This document shows positions 8,640-32,312 of a DNA stretch of 44,319 nt, piece after piece. The stretch's first letter is position 1. Every line of letters begins with the position of its first letter. Made by a program: the position numbers and the translations under genes. The notes beneath the pieces are model-generated. The model was not told the origin of the DNA, did no database searches, and worked only from the letters and a program-made list of their open reading frames with translations. This stretch comes from Escherichia phage HK1: the sequence record PP514360. The stretch is one strand, 5' to 3'.

Positions 8640-9419
8640 TTAACGACGGCGACGTTTACGTGGTGCTTCGTCTTCGTCGTCTTCGTCCTCATCTTCATCG
8701 TCGCGTGGCTTACGACGTTTACGAGGTTTTTCATCTTCGTCGTCGTCATCGTGGCGCTTGGACTTTTTGGACTTGCGCGGCTTGTCGTCTTCGTCGTCGT
8801 CATCACGACGTTTTGACTTTTTGGACTTGCGCGGGCTTTCATCTTCGTCATCGTTGTCCAGGTCTTCGTCGGAGCAAGAAGAACCGCCACCACCGAAGGA
8901 TTCACCATCATCGCGGAAGCGCAGACCCAGCAAGCCAGCCCCGAGTCCCTTGCCGTTGGTATTGTTCCACGCCCAAATATCAATGGACACGTTGCAATAA
9001 CAACCGGAGTAAATCTCCCGTCCTTCGATCTCGTCGCCTTCTACGGTCAGACCTTGTTCCGTCTGCTTCTCGCCGAGTGACGTTTGAATGTTTGGTTGTT
9101 TGAACGATTTGGTGTTGATATACAACATGCCTTCGAATTCTTCGGTTACTTCGTCGCGCTCATCACCGTCGCGAACAGCGCACTCCTTAGAATCCTGGGC
9201 GTAGTGGCGGTCCATCCACTTATCGGCGTTCTTCTCGGATTTCAGCTTGTCGGTGAGCACTGCGCGCGCTGCCGCTTCCACTTTGTCCACCTGCGGATCT
9301 TCTTTATCCAGAAGAATCACGGCACGGTATGCCGGTTTCTGACCATCTTTTTTAGGGGTATCGCGCTCCCAAATATTAAGGAAACATACGCGCACATTTT
9401 TCAGGTTGACTTTAGCCAT
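8640..9419 (-). CDS. putative ssDNA-binding protein (DUF2815/T7 gp2.5-like) with repetitive acidic/basic C-terminal tail
   Basis: N-terminus MAKVNLKNVRVCFLNIWE resembles the DUF2815 family that commonly sits between DUF2800 and PolA; C-terminus is a tandem repeat (DDDDEDxKPRKSKKSKR). ATG at 9419 (track start at 9440 is GTG). Confidence 0.55.
   Translation of the reverse strand: MAKVNLKNVRVCFLNIWERDTPKKDGQKPAYRAVILLDKEDPQVDKVEAAARAVLTDKLKSEKNADKWMDRHYAQDSKECAVRDGDERDEVTEEFEGMLYINTKSFKQPNIQTSLGEKQTEQGLTVEGDEIEGREIYSGCYCNVSIDIWAWNNTNGKGLGAGLLGLRFRDDGESFGGGGSSCSDEDLDNDDEDESPRKSKKSKRRDDDDEDDKPRKSKKSKRHDDDDEDEKPRKRRKPRDDEDEDEDDEDEAPRKRRRR
8695..8860. repeat. intragenic tandem repeat (~57-bp unit) encoding alternating acidic/basic tail of the SSB-like protein
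   Basis: TTTTTGGACTTGCGCGG...TCGTCGTCGTCATC appears in tandem; encodes DDDDEDxKPRKSKKSKR units. Confidence 0.7.
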
Positions 9420-11660: not shown

Positions 11661-12176
11661 TTAATCTTCCAGTTCGAAATAGGTTTCGACGATTTCTTTT
11701 AGCTCTTTGTGGAAGTCTTCGACGTCGTCATCTTCCAGCTTGGCGATTGATTTGATCTCGAACGATTCCAGCAGGTCGTCGAATTCGTCGTTCGCGTCGT
11801 CGTCATCACCACCCGCAATAATCGCGGCATACTGTTTGATTTCGTCGCGCATCTCCGCCAGCGGATCGGCATCTTTCTTACCTTTGCCTTTCGCCGGTGC
11901 TTTCTTAGACTTAGCCGGTTTTTCGTCTTCGGCATCGTCGTCGTCATCTTCTACGACTTCTTTTTTAGCCTTACCTTTCGCCGGTGCTTTTTTAGATTTA
12001 GCCGGTTTTTCGTCTTCAGCTTCATCGTCGTCATCTTCGACAACTTCTTTTTTGGCCTTAGACGGCTTCTTGTCTTCCTGCTTACCAACGGCAGCGCCAA
12101 CGGTTTCATAATGCTTTGCAATGGTTTCCAGTGCTACTACGCCGCGAGTGATCAGGTTTACGATTTGCTCAAACAT
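11661..12176 (-). CDS. acidic protein with tandem Lys-rich/Asp-Glu-rich repeats (histone-H1-like KAPAKGK units)
   Basis: Start at MFEQIVNL (ATG 12176) with GGAGA SD; internal 29-aa unit KKEVVEDDDDEAEDEKPAKSKKAPAKGKA repeated twice; strongly acidic C-terminus. The track ORF start at 12356 runs through the promoter region and is unlikely. Confidence 0.55.
   Translation of the reverse strand: MFEQIVNLITRGVVALETIAKHYETVGAAVGKQEDKKPSKAKKEVVEDDDDEAEDEKPAKSKKAPAKGKAKKEVVEDDDDDAEDEKPAKSKKAPAKGKGKKDADPLAEMRDEIKQYAAIIAGGDDDDANDEFDDLLESFEIKSIAKLEDDDVEDFHKELKEIVETYFELED
11881..12057. repeat. intragenic tandem repeat (~88-bp unit, two copies) in the acidic repeat protein gene
   Basis: CCTTTCGCCGGTGCTTT(C/T)TTAGA(C/T)TTAGCCGGTTTTTCGTCTTC...TCGTCGTCATCTTC twice in tandem; resembles the SSB-gene repeat unit at nucleotide level. 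Confidence 0.7.
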
Positions 12177-12577: not shown

Positions 12578-12907
12578 ATGAATGTAAACGACGCAATCGA
12601 AATGTTAACGAAGACTGTTTGCAGTGAGACAAGCCGGTCATGGGCATATACCGATGCCGTGGGGGCGGTGTTATTTGAAATCGAACGACTGCGGCTTACC
12701 GAAAAAGAATTGCGCGCCAGGCTGGAACTACTCAACGGTACGGCAGCAAGCAAGCTGCAAAAGCACAATGAGGAAATGGAAGAATACAAAAAACAGGTTA
12801 TCCGTTTACGCGATGAGGGGAAGTCATGGGCAATGATCGCGGAGTTGACAGGAATTAATCAGAGCACCGTGCGATCCTGGGTACGCAATAACAAAACTTC
12901 GAAGTAA
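12578..12907 (+). CDS. HTH DNA-binding protein (putative transcriptional regulator)
   Basis: C-terminal KSWAMIAELTGINQSTVRSWVRN is a classic helix-turn-helix; GAGGG SD upstream; first gene of the plus-strand block, downstream of TTGACA-17-TAGTTT. Confidence 0.6.
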   Translation: MNVNDAIEMLTKTVCSETSRSWAYTDAVGAVLFEIERLRLTEKELRARLELLNGTAASKLQKHNEEMEEYKKQVIRLRDEGKSWAMIAELTGINQSTVRSWVRNNKTSK

Positions 12908-12917
12908 GGCGACGGCA

Positions 12918-15182
12918 ATGAGCTTAATTAAATTCGCTGTAACAAAACCCGCTAAAAAAGGCGAAAAAGCCAGGGCGGAAAACTTCCAGATGACCACCGA
13001 TGAATTTTTCGAATTTATCAAAGATGCGAAAGAAATATCCTCGGTGCATATCAACAAAACGGAAGATAAAGCCGAGTATGCACGCCGCAAGCGTAAGGCC
13101 GACGGCATCGTGGCGTATACCAGTGACGGATTGCGTCGCAAGACCAGTGCGGTGGACCGCTCGATCCTGTTCTTTGATATTGACCGCACCGACACTCGCA
13201 CCTTGCGCCGCTGCCGTAAGGCTTTCATCGACGCGGGTCTGGAACACGTATTCCACACAACCACCGGCGACCGCCACCCACTGAAAGGTGGAACGCGTTG
13301 CGCTCGCTTCCTGGTGCTCACTGACAAGCCTGTACCGGCGGAAGACCTGGGCCGTGTCCAGTATGCGCTATTACACCAACTTGGTCTGTCAGATGTGGAC
13401 TTCGACGATTGCACGAAAGACACAAACCGCCTGATGTACCTACCACACCAGCAGTCTGTAATAAAGTGTCACTACGGCAAACGTGCCCGCGTCCGTCGTC
13501 TGCTTCGCCTGGCGGATACGCTTGGCGTGGAGAAGGAAGAAGTACGCCGCGAACTGACCCAGGGCGACGACGCAGTGGCAGACGGCATTCTTGACTGGTG
13601 CTTCCAGGCAGGATTCGAGGAGTTATCTTCCGGTCGCGGTTATGAAGTGCCGTGCCCGAACGAACATCTGCACAGCGGCGAAGGGTCGACGGCTATCATG
13701 GTTAAGGATGGCGAGATCCGTTTCAAGTGTATGCACACCGGCAACGAGTGTTGCTCCGAACTGAATAGACACCAGCACCTGGCGCTGCGTCTTATCGGGA
13801 TCCCGGACCACCTGAACGTCGAGCCACACAATATGTCCCGTAAGCAAATAGCCGCCATCCTTCCGGGGCTGGACGACGAGGAAGTCGAATCCTTATATGA
13901 ACATATTGTTGATGCGGTTGGCGACGGCGAAGAATATGGCGTGTGCACCGATGCGGATCTGGATAATGAGCCGGTTGCGCTGTTCAGTAAGCACGACCCG
14001 ATCATCGAGGGGTTGATTAACTTTAAATCAACCTGGTATATGGCTGGTGAGTCGAATATCGGTAAGTCTTTCTATGTGCTGGGCCAAATGGGCGCGGTTG
14101 CCGCGGGTATCCCGTTTGGCGGTGCGAAGGTCGTCCAGTCTCATTGCTTCTATTTCGACGCGGAAGGCGGCGAAGCCTCCAACCAGCGCAAAGAAGCATT
14201 GCAGATTAAATACGAGCACGACCTGGACAAGCTGCACATTATCGACCTGCAGTCTCGCGGCTGGGATATCACCAGCAAGTCCGGTTTGCGCGAAGTTATC
14301 AGCTTTATCAACCGCACCGCTAACGGCGAACCTGTTGGCCTGGTGGCGTTCGACTCACTCAACCAGACTGTTGCTCTGCGGTCCGCCGATGCTAAACCGT
14401 TTGACGAGAACAACGCCAGCGATATGGGTGAAGTGGTCAAAGCGCTGAAGGCCATTGCGGAAAACACAGGTGGCAGTGCGGGCGTCATCCACCACCCGGC
14501 GAAGGGTGCAAACGGCAGCAGAACCCCACGCGGATCCGGCGCACTGCATGGCGCTGTCGATTCAGCTTTCTTCCTGGAACAGCCGGACGACAACCAGCCG
14601 GGACAACTTAACCTGTATCACGAAAAGTCACGTAACGGCATCAAGCAAGCGCCGCGTGGCTTCGTCCTGCTCAAGTGCAAGGTGGCGGTAGATCTCCGCA
14701 AGTCAGAAGCGTTCGCGTCGCACCAGTCCACCAGCACCGGGCCAGACTTCGGTGACGTAGTTGCTGGTTGGGACGTCAAACCAATTGCGTCCACCCCGCG
14801 CGACGAGACTTTATACCTCGTACCGGTCGCCCTGGCACCGTTCGCTATAGAACAGGCGAAGGCCGCAGGAAAAGCCGCAGTTAAGGAAGAGAACACCGCC
14901 GGACCGCGCACCGAAAAAGAAAAGGTACTTTACGCGGCCCTGGAAAAACTGATGGAAGATAACCCGGACCATACTGGTTTCAGTAAATCGGCAATCGTCC
15001 GCCAGGCAGGACTCGCGAAGGGGGGCACTTCGACGAAGGCAATCGACGATATGGTTGAGCGCGGCGTGATCGGTTTCTATACAGATCCGCACACCGGGGC
15101 CATATATGGGTCGTCGAATTTAGTCATCAAATCGGATATCCCCATCACGCTTTCGGCGACCGATGACGACCTGAACGATTAA
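12918..15182 (+). CDS. DNA primase-helicase (N-terminal primase-like domain, C-terminal RecA-like ATPase)
   Basis: 754 aa; LFFDIDRTD (DxD, primase-polymerase-like), Cys/His cluster CPNEHLH...CMHTGNEC, Walker A GESNIGKS and AFDSLNQ in a RecA-like C-terminal half. Confidence 0.75.
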   Translation: MSLIKFAVTKPAKKGEKARAENFQMTTDEFFEFIKDAKEISSVHINKTEDKAEYARRKRKADGIVAYTSDGLRRKTSAVDRSILFFDIDRTDTRTLRRCRKAFIDAGLEHVFHTTTGDRHPLKGGTRCARFLVLTDKPVPAEDLGRVQYALLHQLGLSDVDFDDCTKDTNRLMYLPHQQSVIKCHYGKRARVRRLLRLADTLGVEKEEVRRELTQGDDAVADGILDWCFQAGFEELSSGRGYEVPCPNEHLHSGEGSTAIMVKDGEIRFKCMHTGNECCSELNRHQHLALRLIGIPDHLNVEPHNMSRKQIAAILPGLDDEEVESLYEHIVDAVGDGEEYGVCTDADLDNEPVALFSKHDPIIEGLINFKSTWYMAGESNIGKSFYVLGQMGAVAAGIPFGGAKVVQSHCFYFDAEGGEASNQRKEALQIKYEHDLDKLHIIDLQSRGWDITSKSGLREVISFINRTANGEPVGLVAFDSLNQTVALRSADAKPFDENNASDMGEVVKALKAIAENTGGSAGVIHHPAKGANGSRTPRGSGALHGAVDSAFFLEQPDDNQPGQLNLYHEKSRNGIKQAPRGFVLLKCKVAVDLRKSEAFASHQSTSTGPDFGDVVAGWDVKPIASTPRDETLYLVPVALAPFAIEQAKAAGKAAVKEENTAGPRTEKEKVLYAALEKLMEDNPDHTGFSKSAIVRQAGLAKGGTSTKAIDDMVERGVIGFYTDPHTGAIYGSSNLVIKSDIPITLSATDDDLND

Positions 15183-15275
15183 ATTTTGCGCGCATTGGTT
15201 GCCATTTTGAGCGTTTTTATCTGGGCGCATTGGTTGCCGTGTAGTGTGAATATAATGCATAGTTATGCAATAAAA

Positions 15276-15450
15276 CTGCATAAAACAAACGGGACAAAAA
15301 GCGGGACAAACAGGAGGCGGGACAAAGCGGGACAGCACCCCGTCCCACCCACGGATGACGCGGCCTGGCGAGGAGCGGGACAGCGGGACAGCACCCCAGT
15401 CTTTCAGACTAGACGGGGGGTCTGTCACCCCCCTCGTCTGAGACTGCATA
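15276..15450. repeat. copy A of duplicated non-coding module (GCGGGACA array plus GC-rich hairpin)
   Basis: CTGCATAAAACAAAC followed by four direct GGGACA repeats, GGGAC-agcacccc-GTCCC, two more GCGGGACA, then hairpin CAGTCTTTCAGACTAGACGGGGGG-tctgtca-CCCCCCTCGTCTGAGACTG. Near-identical to 32076-32250. Confidence 0.8.
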
Positions 15451-15605
15451 AAATCCGGGATTGCATATTGCACGGCAGCAGGGTGCGTATTGCGGTCGTC
15501 GACGAACTAGGCAACCAATGCGAGTTGCGGAATGGTGGGCGAAAAATGCAGTTTGCAGTAACAGCAGATAGCGATCGACTTTTTCATGCGCATGATTAAT
15601 ATTGG

Positions 15606-17440: not shown

Positions 17441-17492
17441 TTATGCAAGCGTGATATAGTCCCAGTGAGATAAAACTTACTGGGACTTTTTT

Positions 17493-20197: not shown

Positions 20198-20749
20198 ATG
20201 GCAGAAATCAAAGTTAAGGGCCGACGCGCCAAACTGGACGGACGAGTAGCAGTAACCCCGCGCCGTAAACCAGGCGAGCAAACCGAGCACACCAATCTTG
20301 GACCTGAAATCGAGTACGGAAAACGCCGTAAAGGCGGCAAATGTGGACGCCCTACTGACTACAGATCCGTTTACTGCGATCAGCTTCGCCGCTATTTTGC
20401 CGACGCCGACGCCTGGCAGGTCAACTACTCCGATAAAGGCGCTGCGCAAGTAATCCCCCGCAACAAAATGCCAACCTTCGGCCGATTTGCCGCTGAAATC
20501 GGCGTGGGCGTAGCTTGCCTGTATCGCTGGGCGCGTGCGCATGAGGAGTTTGCCGAGGCGATGGCTGACGCTATGGAATTGCAGAAAACCTTCCTGATGG
20601 AAGCTGGCGGCGTGACCATCGCGGCGGGCTTCGCTACATTCCTGCTTAAAGCAAACCACGGCGTCCGCGACGATATACCGCTGGATGACGACGAAGATGA
20701 TAACGGCGACGTCGTTGTGGAGCCTACCGGCAAAGGCCAGGGTGAATAA
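20198..20749 (+). CDS. terminase small subunit
   Basis: Position directly upstream of and overlapping the large terminase; basic N-terminus, central helix-rich region (FGRFAAEIGVGVACLYRWARAHEEF), acidic C-terminus. Start at MAEIK (AAGGG SD); alternative ATG at 20177. Confidence 0.6.
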   Translation: MAEIKVKGRRAKLDGRVAVTPRRKPGEQTEHTNLGPEIEYGKRRKGGKCGRPTDYRSVYCDQLRRYFADADAWQVNYSDKGAAQVIPRNKMPTFGRFAAEIGVGVACLYRWARAHEEFAEAMADAMELQKTFLMEAGGVTIAAGFATFLLKANHGVRDDIPLDDDEDDNGDVVVEPTGKGQGE

Positions 20750-31929: not shown

Positions 31930-31933
31930 CGAA

Positions 31934-31967
31934 GCGGGACAAAACGGGACGTCCCGTTTTGTCCCGC
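31934..31967. promoter_or_regulatory. perfect 34-bp palindrome built from GCGGGACA units
   Basis: GCGGGACAAAACGGGAC|GTCCCGTTTTGTCCCGC, five nt after the GT stop codon; candidate operator or hairpin. Confidence 0.55.
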
Positions 31968-32075
31968 CGCCATTAAACCGCATATATACTCACTTTCATT
32001 GCATAAACTAAAAGCGGGACGGGGTGCTGTCCCGATCTGTCCCACCCCTTAAAAGTGAATAGCTATGCGGTTTTT

Positions 32076-32250
32076 CTGCATAAAACAAACGGGACAGAAA
32101 GCGGGACAGAATGAGGCGGGACAAAGCGGGACAGCACCCCGTCCCCGTCAGTGCTGCCGCGGGTTTTAGCCGATCGGGACAGGCGGGACAAAGCCCAGTC
32201 TTTCAGACTAGACGGGGGTCATCGGCCCCCCTCGTCTGAGACTGAATAAG
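32076..32250. repeat. copy B of duplicated non-coding module (GCGGGACA array plus GC-rich hairpin)
   Basis: Same order of elements as copy A with a few substitutions; hairpin arms conserved while the loop differs (tcatcgg versus tctgtca). Confidence 0.8.
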
Positions 32251-32312
32251 GTTTGTTTTAAATTCGCTGATACAATGACCGACGGCAACTGCATAAAAAG
32301 GGGGACTGCATA

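Follow-up and report, generated by a model that had tools for sequence, protein, structure and literature searches.

The genome of Escherichia phage HK1 (sequence record PP514360; the whole stretch of 44,319 nt that was analysed is called the window below) carries two copies of a long GC-rich hairpin, each at the 3' end of a duplicated unit of about 190 nt. By analogy with characterised replicons we tentatively interpret this hairpin as the stem-loop of an iteron-type replication origin next to a replication-protein gene. The context of the module most likely points to an origin element acting at the DNA level rather than to an RNA antitermination signal, because the hairpin is accompanied by iteron arrays, is positioned directly 3' of a gene for a predicted primase-polymerase (prim-pol), helicase and winged-helix protein, and belongs to a module that is present a second time. 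The hairpins, the modules and their iterons are located as follows.

15397-15446, no strand assigned: hairpin copy A; minimum free energy (MFE) as RNA -27.7 kcal/mol, z -4.21
32196-32244, no strand assigned: hairpin copy B; stem of three helices with bulges, the apical one G5/C6; variable loop
15256-15451, + strand: module A; palindrome TGCATAGTTATGCA, TGCATAA site, two iteron clusters and hairpin (25 unique A copies aligned)
32056-32249, + strand: module B; the duplicated unit (18 unique B copies aligned)
15290-15346, + strand: iteron cluster I of module A; four direct CGGGACA and an inverted GTCCC
15376-15390, + strand: iteron cluster II of module A; two direct CGGGACA abutting the hairpin
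32090-32145, + strand: iteron cluster I of module B; four direct CGGGACA and an inverted GTCCC
32175-32190, + strand: iteron cluster II of module B; two direct CGGGACA
31933-32045, no strand assigned: extra iterons upstream of module B; a perfect 34-bp palindrome and a second group at 32015-32045

Repeat analysis (families D2, D8 and D12) revealed that the hairpin is only the 3' end of the duplicated unit, which goes beyond what an earlier note on this DNA had claimed. The two units are 78-83% identical, stand 16.8 kb apart and show the same order of elements: a near-palindrome (TGCATAGTTATGCA in A, TGAATAGCTATGCG in B), TGCATAA 21 nt further on, iteron cluster I, a spacer of about 30 nt, iteron cluster II, the hairpin and C/A-ATAA. 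In both copies the last of the six iterons abuts the hairpin, and a conserved octamer, ACGGCARC, is found beyond it. Module A starts about 70 nt past the stop codon of a gene encoding a protein of 754 aa, and module B occupies the 380-nt gap, otherwise unusual, that leads from the tail-chaperone open reading frames (ORFs) to the tape-measure gene. The iteron sequence is clearly enriched: CGGGACA occurs 22 times in the window where 6.3 occurrences are expected, none of 100 shuffles reached this number, and 12 of the 22 are located in the two modules on the + strand. The 34-bp palindrome upstream of module B (31933-31966) is itself composed of four iterons, GCGGGACAAAACGGGAC followed by GTCCCGTTTTGTCCCGC, with an MFE of -29.9 kcal/mol. 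Two copies of the module are present in nearly all of 158 related phage records (329 matching places). Its repeats had been noticed by the depositors of phage SO-1, whose GenBank record already annotates a 'region A' and a 'region B' as repeat regions with mutual similarity; we found no paper that describes the hairpin, its conservation across genera or the domain structure of the neighbouring protein.

The left edge of the modules (15256-15283 and 32056-32083) consists of an ARG-box-like sequence, TG(A/C)AT-N4-AT(G/T)CA, with a second TG(A/C)ATAA exactly 21 nt on. When up to two mismatches were allowed the ARG-box pattern had only two matches in the window, one of them at 15256. The pair is kept across genera despite their different iterons and is also present at 37038-37072 of L025 and at 2925-2960 of L172. 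Its conservation while the iterons differ suggests that it is a binding site for a host factor. Another sequence, TGATTTATAAGGA(G/A), was observed between the iteron clusters of several lineages (L179, L180, L182, L178 and the gaps of phage eiAU) and is replaced by GCCGC-GGGTTT-GCCGA in Dhillonvirus module B, phiEap-2 and VSiA; this inter-cluster element may be a bend or, again, a host-factor site. Three further candidates were rejected. A DnaA box at the left edge was discarded since its TGTG part is not conserved in L161 and L175, and a core like that of XerCD/cer sites after the hairpin has the wrong spacing and is missing from copy A. A reading of the GGGACA repeats as a CsrA sponge or as R-loop sequences does not agree with the iterons of other lineages, which lack GGA or are C-rich.

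Copy A of the hairpin reads CAGTCTTTCAGACTAGACGGGGGG-tctgtca-CCCCCCTCGTCTGAGACTG and copy B CAGTCTTTCAGACTAGACGGGGG-tcatcgg-CCCCCCTCGTCTGAGACTG; the earlier note had located and transcribed both correctly, and the arms are indeed equal save for one extra G while the loops differ. The imperfect stem is made up of three helices, CAGTC:GACTG, TCAGAC:GTCTGA and a G-run paired with a C-run, with a TT bulge after the first helix and an internal loop after the second. Folded as RNA, copy B reached -26.9 kcal/mol (z -4.56) and copy A the values listed above, and none of 200 dinucleotide shuffles per copy was as stable, so that the folding comparison proposed in the note supports the hairpin. The reverse strands fold on a par with the + strands when treated as RNA (-26.0 kcal/mol for B and -29.3 kcal/mol for A), and with DNA parameters each strand gave -13 to -16 kcal/mol. 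Moreover, wobble pairs appear without strand preference: G.U pairs are formed on the + strand in L074 and phiEap-2, whereas a G-to-A change in L179 gives C.A on the + strand and G.U on the - strand. As both strands fold equally well, wobble pairs occur on either of them and no Rfam family matches the hairpin (neither at gathering thresholds nor in permissive scans), the two strands are indistinguishable, and equal folding of both strands is what would be expected of an origin palindrome. All lineages can also form an alternative fold composed of a small 5' hairpin (AGTCT-loop-AGACT; in VSiA CTCCT-tag-AGGAG) and a GC-rich hairpin, and either fold is possible.

A canonical intrinsic terminator was rejected, as the note had argued. 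The GC-rich stem-loop is present, but in neither copy does a U-run begin 0-2 nt past the stem: copy A is followed by CATAAAATCC, and in the sequence after copy B (AATAAGGTTTG) AATAAGG comes first and only then TTTGTTTT. Ordinary terminators with a T-run are found elsewhere in the same genome. Besides its RNA readings (a put/nut-like signal or a processing site), which are possible, the note had briefly named a DNA cruciform or a stem-loop bound by protein.

Within the genus the arms of the hairpin hardly change. They are essentially invariant, unpaired bulges included, in more than 40 copies taken from phage records, IMG/VR and metagenomes, and the apical loop is variable (tcaatgg, tcagtgg, tcagcgg, tcatcgg, tctggca, tctgtca, ttaatgg). 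It might be thought that invariant arms around a variable loop reveal a structure under selection, and this had been the argument of the earlier note. Judged from the alignment, however, the pattern is one of sequence conservation and not of covariation; it shows only a strong constraint on the arms, whose invariance also makes a covariation test inside the genus uninformative. The divergent phage LM40P1 has CCCCC(C)TCCGTCT in both its copies, and L074 carries the C-to-T change that leads to its G.U pair on the + strand. The total length of the hairpin is 49, 50 or 55 nt, in other words the spacing of the arms is not fixed.

Several assemblies and records break inside the module, namely at the start of L014, at the junction of NC_073074.1 (L173/L174) and at the ends of L176 and L182. 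One contig begins in the hairpin loop, two contigs end among the iterons, and one circular record was opened in the 5' arm, where its C-run is one C shorter. Genome termini at the hairpin were considered and set aside, because the breaks are best explained as an assembly artefact of a palindromic repeat present in two copies; they are probably that rather than physical ends.

Evidence for conservation of the structure comes from more distant relatives, whose regions downstream of the primase gene were collected by tblastn with the 754-aa protein and from contigs encoding homologues. In about ten distant lineages the iteron sequence has changed and a long imperfect hairpin after the iterons has been kept. 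Every lineage with a gap after the gene shows the same succession of replication gene, lineage-specific short repeats and long imperfect hairpin. The iterons are:

Dhillonvirus and L161/L175/L181: CGGGACA
L176/L179: TGTGGCA
L180: GTGTGCCAA
L182: GGTGCCA
phiEap-2: CGGACAA; hairpin architecture as in HK1, with the 3' end ...GACTGCATAA shared
VSiA: GGGGGAGA
eiAU: CGCCCCG
Tsm2: TTCCGCACA
L177: TGCGAGT
L178: GCTGCCAAC

All hairpins of other lineages that were tested are more stable than their shuffles (z -2.8 to -5.3), and in Tsm2, L177 and L178 the hairpin is the most stable local structure of the gap (-25 to -29 kcal/mol). A C-G pair of helix 2 is replaced by G-C in L029, which has GGCGG:CCGCC as apical helix 3, and in eiAU, phiEap-2 and L179 a G-C pair of the apical helix has become T-A. 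phiEap-2 and L179 have kept the 5' arm (AGTCTT..CAGACT), which is paired with a changed 3' arm in another register. When 13 alignable sequences were compared, 94.7% of the cells were paired, a value that dropped to 39-60% when the partners were slid by 1-3 columns, and three pairs had changed on both sides, a number not reached in any of 500 shuffles. The hairpin is thus, as far as the alignment tells, conserved as a structure, with modest formal covariation. The claim of a structure under selection is supported by these distant lineages, several of which show compensatory changes. A second module copy was found in three lineages at differing sites: before the tape-measure gene in Dhillonvirus and eiAU and in the head region in Tsm2. 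In Serratia phage Tsm2 (L023) this second copy (20357-20574) contains TTCCGCACA iterons, the shared spacer and a GC-rich hairpin. Jerseyvirus and Kagunavirus relatives had no such module after the primase gene. In L179 an AAGGAG sequence could serve a short ORF running through the hairpin, and this ORF is not conserved in L180.

The genes in front of module A are the following.

12578-12907, + strand: gene for a small helix-turn-helix (HTH) protein with a HTH_23 / Sigma70_r4_2 match, upstream of the replication gene
12918-15182, + strand: gene for the 754-aa replication protein; predicted archaeo-eukaryotic primase (AEP) prim-pol, RepA-like helicase (AAA_25) and C-terminal winged helix
14910-15152, + strand: predicted winged-helix part of the replication gene (about residues 665-745), from structure model, Foldseek and alignment

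Pfam recognised only AAA_25, a family of RepA-type helicases, in the 754-aa protein (residues 357-531), and a profile of 23 homologues had RSF1010 RepA as its sole helicase match in the PDB, a weak one (E 0.12). The N-terminal 350 residues were modelled with a predicted local distance difference test score (pLDDT) of 85.5; their best PDB match was the AEP domain of the PrimPol of cyanophage S-2L (E 1.7e-5), with LigD-Pol and Prim-PolC next. The AEP assignment is consistent with a Cys/His cluster and with a DxD...H...D pattern that is invariant. The C-terminal stretch of about 90 residues is predicted to form three helices and a beta hairpin (pLDDT 78-89), and its top PDB matches in Foldseek are all winged-helix DNA binders: the MarR family, DNA-bound MepR, LexA, the winged helix of the origin recognition complex (ORC) and histone H1. 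This last assignment is at the level of the fold, with a best E of 6e-3. According to these models a single chain unites AEP prim-pol, RepA-like helicase and winged helix.

Which part of it might read the iterons? Our reasoned guess is the winged helix, the only candidate for an iteron binder. It is the most divergent part of the replication protein, with a small number of residues (FSKSAI, GGT) that vary along with the iteron type. The small HTH protein was rejected as iteron reader: its recognition helix is identical in L175, with CGGGACA iterons, and L176, with TGTGGCA iterons, and Dhillonvirus and phiEap-2 share iterons of the GGACA type although their small HTH proteins are non-homologous.

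The octamer beyond the hairpins and a promoter-like sequence near one of them are located at:

15472-15479, + strand: octamer ACGGCAGC, 25 nt past hairpin A
32282-32289, + strand: octamer ACGGCAAC, 37 nt past hairpin B
32268-32276, + strand: extended -10-like TGaTACAAT, 24 nt past hairpin B, read from the sequence

ACGGCARC lies 20-65 nt past the hairpin in 13 of 15 modules. It is far from confined to them: the window holds 49 copies, about one per 900 bp, against some 4.5 expected and a maximum of 10 in 100 shuffles, and they are found in each of the three reading frames, in antisense orientation and between genes (for example at 15233-15240 on the - strand). Their orientation is strongly biased between hairpin A and 41.2 kb, with 26 on the + strand and 2, both just left of module B, on the - strand; the left arm has 6 on the + and 7 on the - strand. 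SO-1, LM40P1, VSiA, eiAU, Tsm2 and Sciku contain 27-53 copies and the control phage T1 contains 10. Genome-wide the octamer is over-represented 7-14 times in all phages with this replication protein. It could be a start signal of the primase or some other polar DNA signal.

One precedent is provided by the Sulfolobus plasmid pRN1, in which the operon of orf56 and orf904 is followed by a stem-loop; the integrity of this stem-loop is essential for replication and it is functional when moved (PMC4234260). An orf904-type arrangement with a stem-loop has also been predicted for Bordetella phage BIP-1 (PMC4234260). HK1 shares with both a gene for a small DNA-binding protein, then one for a protein composed of an AEP prim-pol, a hexameric helicase and a C-terminal winged helix (the latter at the fold level), and just 3' of it a long stem-loop conserved in structure. 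There are differences. The helicase of pRN1 belongs to SF3 and Pfam assigns that of HK1 to AAA_25, with a RepA/RecA fold. Iterons are present here and not in pRN1, the hairpin has about 50 nt instead of 100 nt, and there are two copies per genome. Finally, the origin role was tested experimentally in pRN1 and is read from sequence and models in HK1.

The oriV of the IncQ plasmid RSF1010 contains iterons followed by the hairpins ssiA and ssiB; the RepA helicase unwinds the origin and the AEP-like RepB' primes a few bases 3' of the hairpin (PMC8567376). As in HK1 and other lineages, clustered direct repeats adjoin hairpins, there known to be priming signals, a RepA-family helicase is combined with an AEP-like primase, and as an inverted repeat the hairpin exists on both strands. 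RSF1010 differs in using three separate proteins, among them a dedicated initiator, RepC, that reads 20-bp iterons; no RepC-like gene was identified in HK1. Its ssi hairpins have about 21 nt within signals of 40 nt and no sequence similarity to the one long palindrome found here. Phage P4 offers a third comparison. P4 requires two separated iteron regions, ori and crr, and to our knowledge no long GC-rich hairpin has been described as part of its ori. Like HK1 it has one protein with primase, helicase and winged helix, and short iterons in two separate regions of the genome. The P4 protein, however, has a Toprim primase and an SF3 helicase and the iterons are TGTTCACC, as opposed to the AEP fold and the CGGGACA iterons of HK1 in regions 16.8 kb apart. 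The winged helix of P4 alpha binds the origin repeats, as cited in PMC4234260.

From this arrangement we infer that the replication protein binds the iterons and that melting, priming and thus replication activity take place at the module. The winged helix would bind the CGGGACA iterons in their two clusters, possibly aided by a host architectural factor at the ARG-box-like palindrome, and the helicase would assemble beside them. The adjacent imperfect palindrome could then form hairpins on one strand or on both, by extrusion or melting, and the hairpin might mark the loading site of the helicase, the site of the first primer, or both, in the manner of an ssi signal. Priming would probably start at the conserved ACGGCARC some 30 nt downstream. 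Copy B in front of the tape-measure gene might be a second origin or an enhancer acting in cis. A more specific proposal, and a quite improbable one, is that the module is a bipartite origin for an uncharacterised class of phage replication protein (AEP prim-pol, RepA-type helicase and winged helix), with the hairpin as its ssi signal and ACGGCARC as the sequence-specific start signal of that primase; if true, it would reveal where Dhillonvirus and Guernseyvirinae phages begin replication and also the code of their lagging-strand priming.

Several points weigh against an origin. We found no published account of replication initiation in any of these phages, and iteron binding by the winged helix is a reasoned guess; the winged-helix region is not clearly more alike between lineages that share iterons. 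There is no obvious long AT-rich unwinding element beside hairpin A. The 20 nt after hairpin B are about 80% A+T and TGATTTATAAGGAG is found between the iteron clusters of several lineages, with nothing clearly equivalent at copy A. The class of the helicase is unlike that of the precedents pRN1 and P4, which have SF3 helicases. Formal covariation is modest, since 9 of 16 pairs never vary and the covariation term of RNAalifold is about zero. Both modules are oriented like the flanking genes and would be transcribed, so that a role as RNA is possible, and the invariant extended -10-like element 24 nt past hairpin B would also fit a position upstream of a promoter.

The first of the alternatives is an RNA element in early and late messages that sets how strongly upstream and downstream genes are expressed relative to each other. 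It could be a site of RNase III-type processing, a stem-loop protecting the 3' end or an attenuator that depends on a factor. Both copies are intercistronic, one after the replication gene and the other in the gap between tail chaperone and tape-measure gene, and they are read on the coding strand. The stem of about 18-22 bp with internal loops falls into the size class of the RNase III sites of phage T7, a correspondence in size and location that is necessary and not specific, and without a T-run it is not a simple terminator. Canonical terminators that cut the late region into units indicate that expression is tuned along the operon, and the + strand G.U pairs of L074 and phiEap-2 would suit an RNA. 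The T7 sites and the put RNAs of phage HK022 are, like the hairpins of HK1, imperfect intercistronic stem-loops of about 50-60 nt that lack a U-run and occur more than once per genome. They differ in having no iteron arrays, and no sequence similarity between them and the hairpin was found. put consists of two defined stem-loops just downstream of promoters, and nut has a boxA/boxB form; in HK1 there is a two-hairpin alternative fold (HP1 AGTCT:AGACT plus the GC hairpin), a consensus scan listed no promoter directly upstream of the hairpins, and the Rfam searches gave no match, the existence of put and nut models in Rfam being unchecked. Moreover, an RNA element leaves unexplained why the hairpin is constantly associated with iterons and why the whole iteron-hairpin unit is duplicated. 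It is also at odds with a minus strand that folds as well as the plus strand, with the C.A pair of L179 and hence wobble pairs without strand preference, with unpaired bulges that are as invariant within the genus as the paired bases, and with the lack of an Rfam family. For these reasons we consider it unlikely, if by no means far-fetched.

A distinctly unlikely explanation is that the module is the upstream region of a promoter, in which a phage activator or repressor that controls promoters just downstream would recognise the iterons, and the hairpin sequence, at about -30 to -80, would be a cruciform or a composite operator whose GC core is flanked by AGTCT/AGACT half-sites. The extended -10 CTGATACAAT is invariant in the 18 unique B copies at 24 nt past the hairpin, a -10-like hexamer precedes ACGGCARC by 2-5 nt in most lineages, blocks of + strand genes follow both modules, and T1-type relatives have unexplained repeats close to promoters (PMC11447400). 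On the other hand, no comparable conserved -10 exists at the same distance past hairpin A in the 25 unique A copies, and a consensus scan reported no promoter in either module region; the element at 32268-32276 was unlisted and has no -35. In eiAU the hairpin ends 35 nt before the start codon of the tape-measure gene and leaves no room for a promoter. Asymmetric bulges, a variable arm spacing and a 5' arm that is more conserved across lineages than the 3' arm argue against a plain double-stranded operator, and together with the register shifts the spacing is hard to square with a fixed one; variable spacing and asymmetric bulges are better accommodated by an intrastrand hairpin than by a rigid double-stranded operator.

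The remaining alternative, a pac site whose iterons bind the small terminase and whose hairpin region receives the first headful cut, is very improbable: the arrangement of short repeats in two clusters with a bendable spacer between them is reminiscent of P1 pac and several assemblies and records break within the module or hairpin, but a palindromic repeat in two copies would be expected to cause such breaks, linkage of the module is to the replication gene and not to the terminase gene, 4.6 kb away, two pac sites 17 kb apart would be odd, and the small terminase subunit is P22/Sf6-like, a type with pac inside the terS gene. That these phages package by the headful mechanism (PMC9022532) would otherwise suit it.

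Read as an origin stem-loop, the hairpin is a known kind of element in a variant form: the helicase is of the RepA type instead of SF3, a stem-loop is combined with iterons, and each genome has two copies. We found no published description of the replication origin of these phages or of the logic behind their intergenic repeats. The coliphages and Salmonella phages that are isolated most often include Dhillonviruses and their Guernseyvirinae relatives, which also form part of the BASEL collection and of phage-therapy panels. If it is indeed the origin, the module would supply a defined cis element for phage engineering and for origin-based interference, a testable pair of winged helix and iteron whose specificity has switched many times between close relatives, and a counterpart in bacterial viruses of the archaeal pRN1 stem-loop origin. 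Should the hairpin be an RNA processing site, the finding would be an ordinary one. For a phage group in wide use the module offers a well-founded origin candidate that can readily be tested, albeit one that will hardly surprise a specialist.

In BLAST searches against phage records the region had 158 matches with 80-97% identity, almost all of them to Escherichia and Shigella Dhillonvirus (HK578, SSL-2009a and SO-1 types), and by its sequence the window belongs to a Dhillonvirus, an HK578/SO-1-like coliphage. Dhillonvirus-type phages are related to T1-like phages (PMC8594841). A leftward block of replication genes occupies 1-12.4 kb and is separated by divergent sigma-70 promoters at about 12.4-12.5 kb from a rightward block, in which the small HTH gene and the 754-aa 'primase/helicase' gene are followed by small genes, lysis, terminase, head and tail genes.

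A further motif, ATTGGTTGC (complement GCAACCAAT), has 25 matches in the window with at most one mismatch against 12.5 expected, mostly as intergenic pairs near gene starts (1240, 2902/2919, 5849/5861, 9475/9491, 12380, 15194/15229, 15511, 15601/15632, 16187, 18731/18754, 26349/26363 and 42445). Both eiAU gaps and all related contigs are likewise rich in it. A candidate reader of this motif is the small HTH protein, with its invariant recognition helix. T1-like phages have intergenic repeats of 21 nt, themselves unexplained, to which the motif may be analogous (PMC11447400).

Terminators with a T-run are found on the + strand at 17458, 18694, 20088, 25175, 28387, 31214 and 34962 and divide the late region; among them are one directly downstream of the major tail gene and another downstream of the tape-measure gene. 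Similar terminator-bounded 'transcriptons' have been described for T1 (PMC11447400). Finally, two early genes on the - strand contain tandem coding repeats of 54 nt and 87 nt (8656-8854 and 11787-12040), families D1, D3, D4 and D7 of the repeat analysis, that are rich in GTC/GTCGTC and correspond to acidic runs on that strand.

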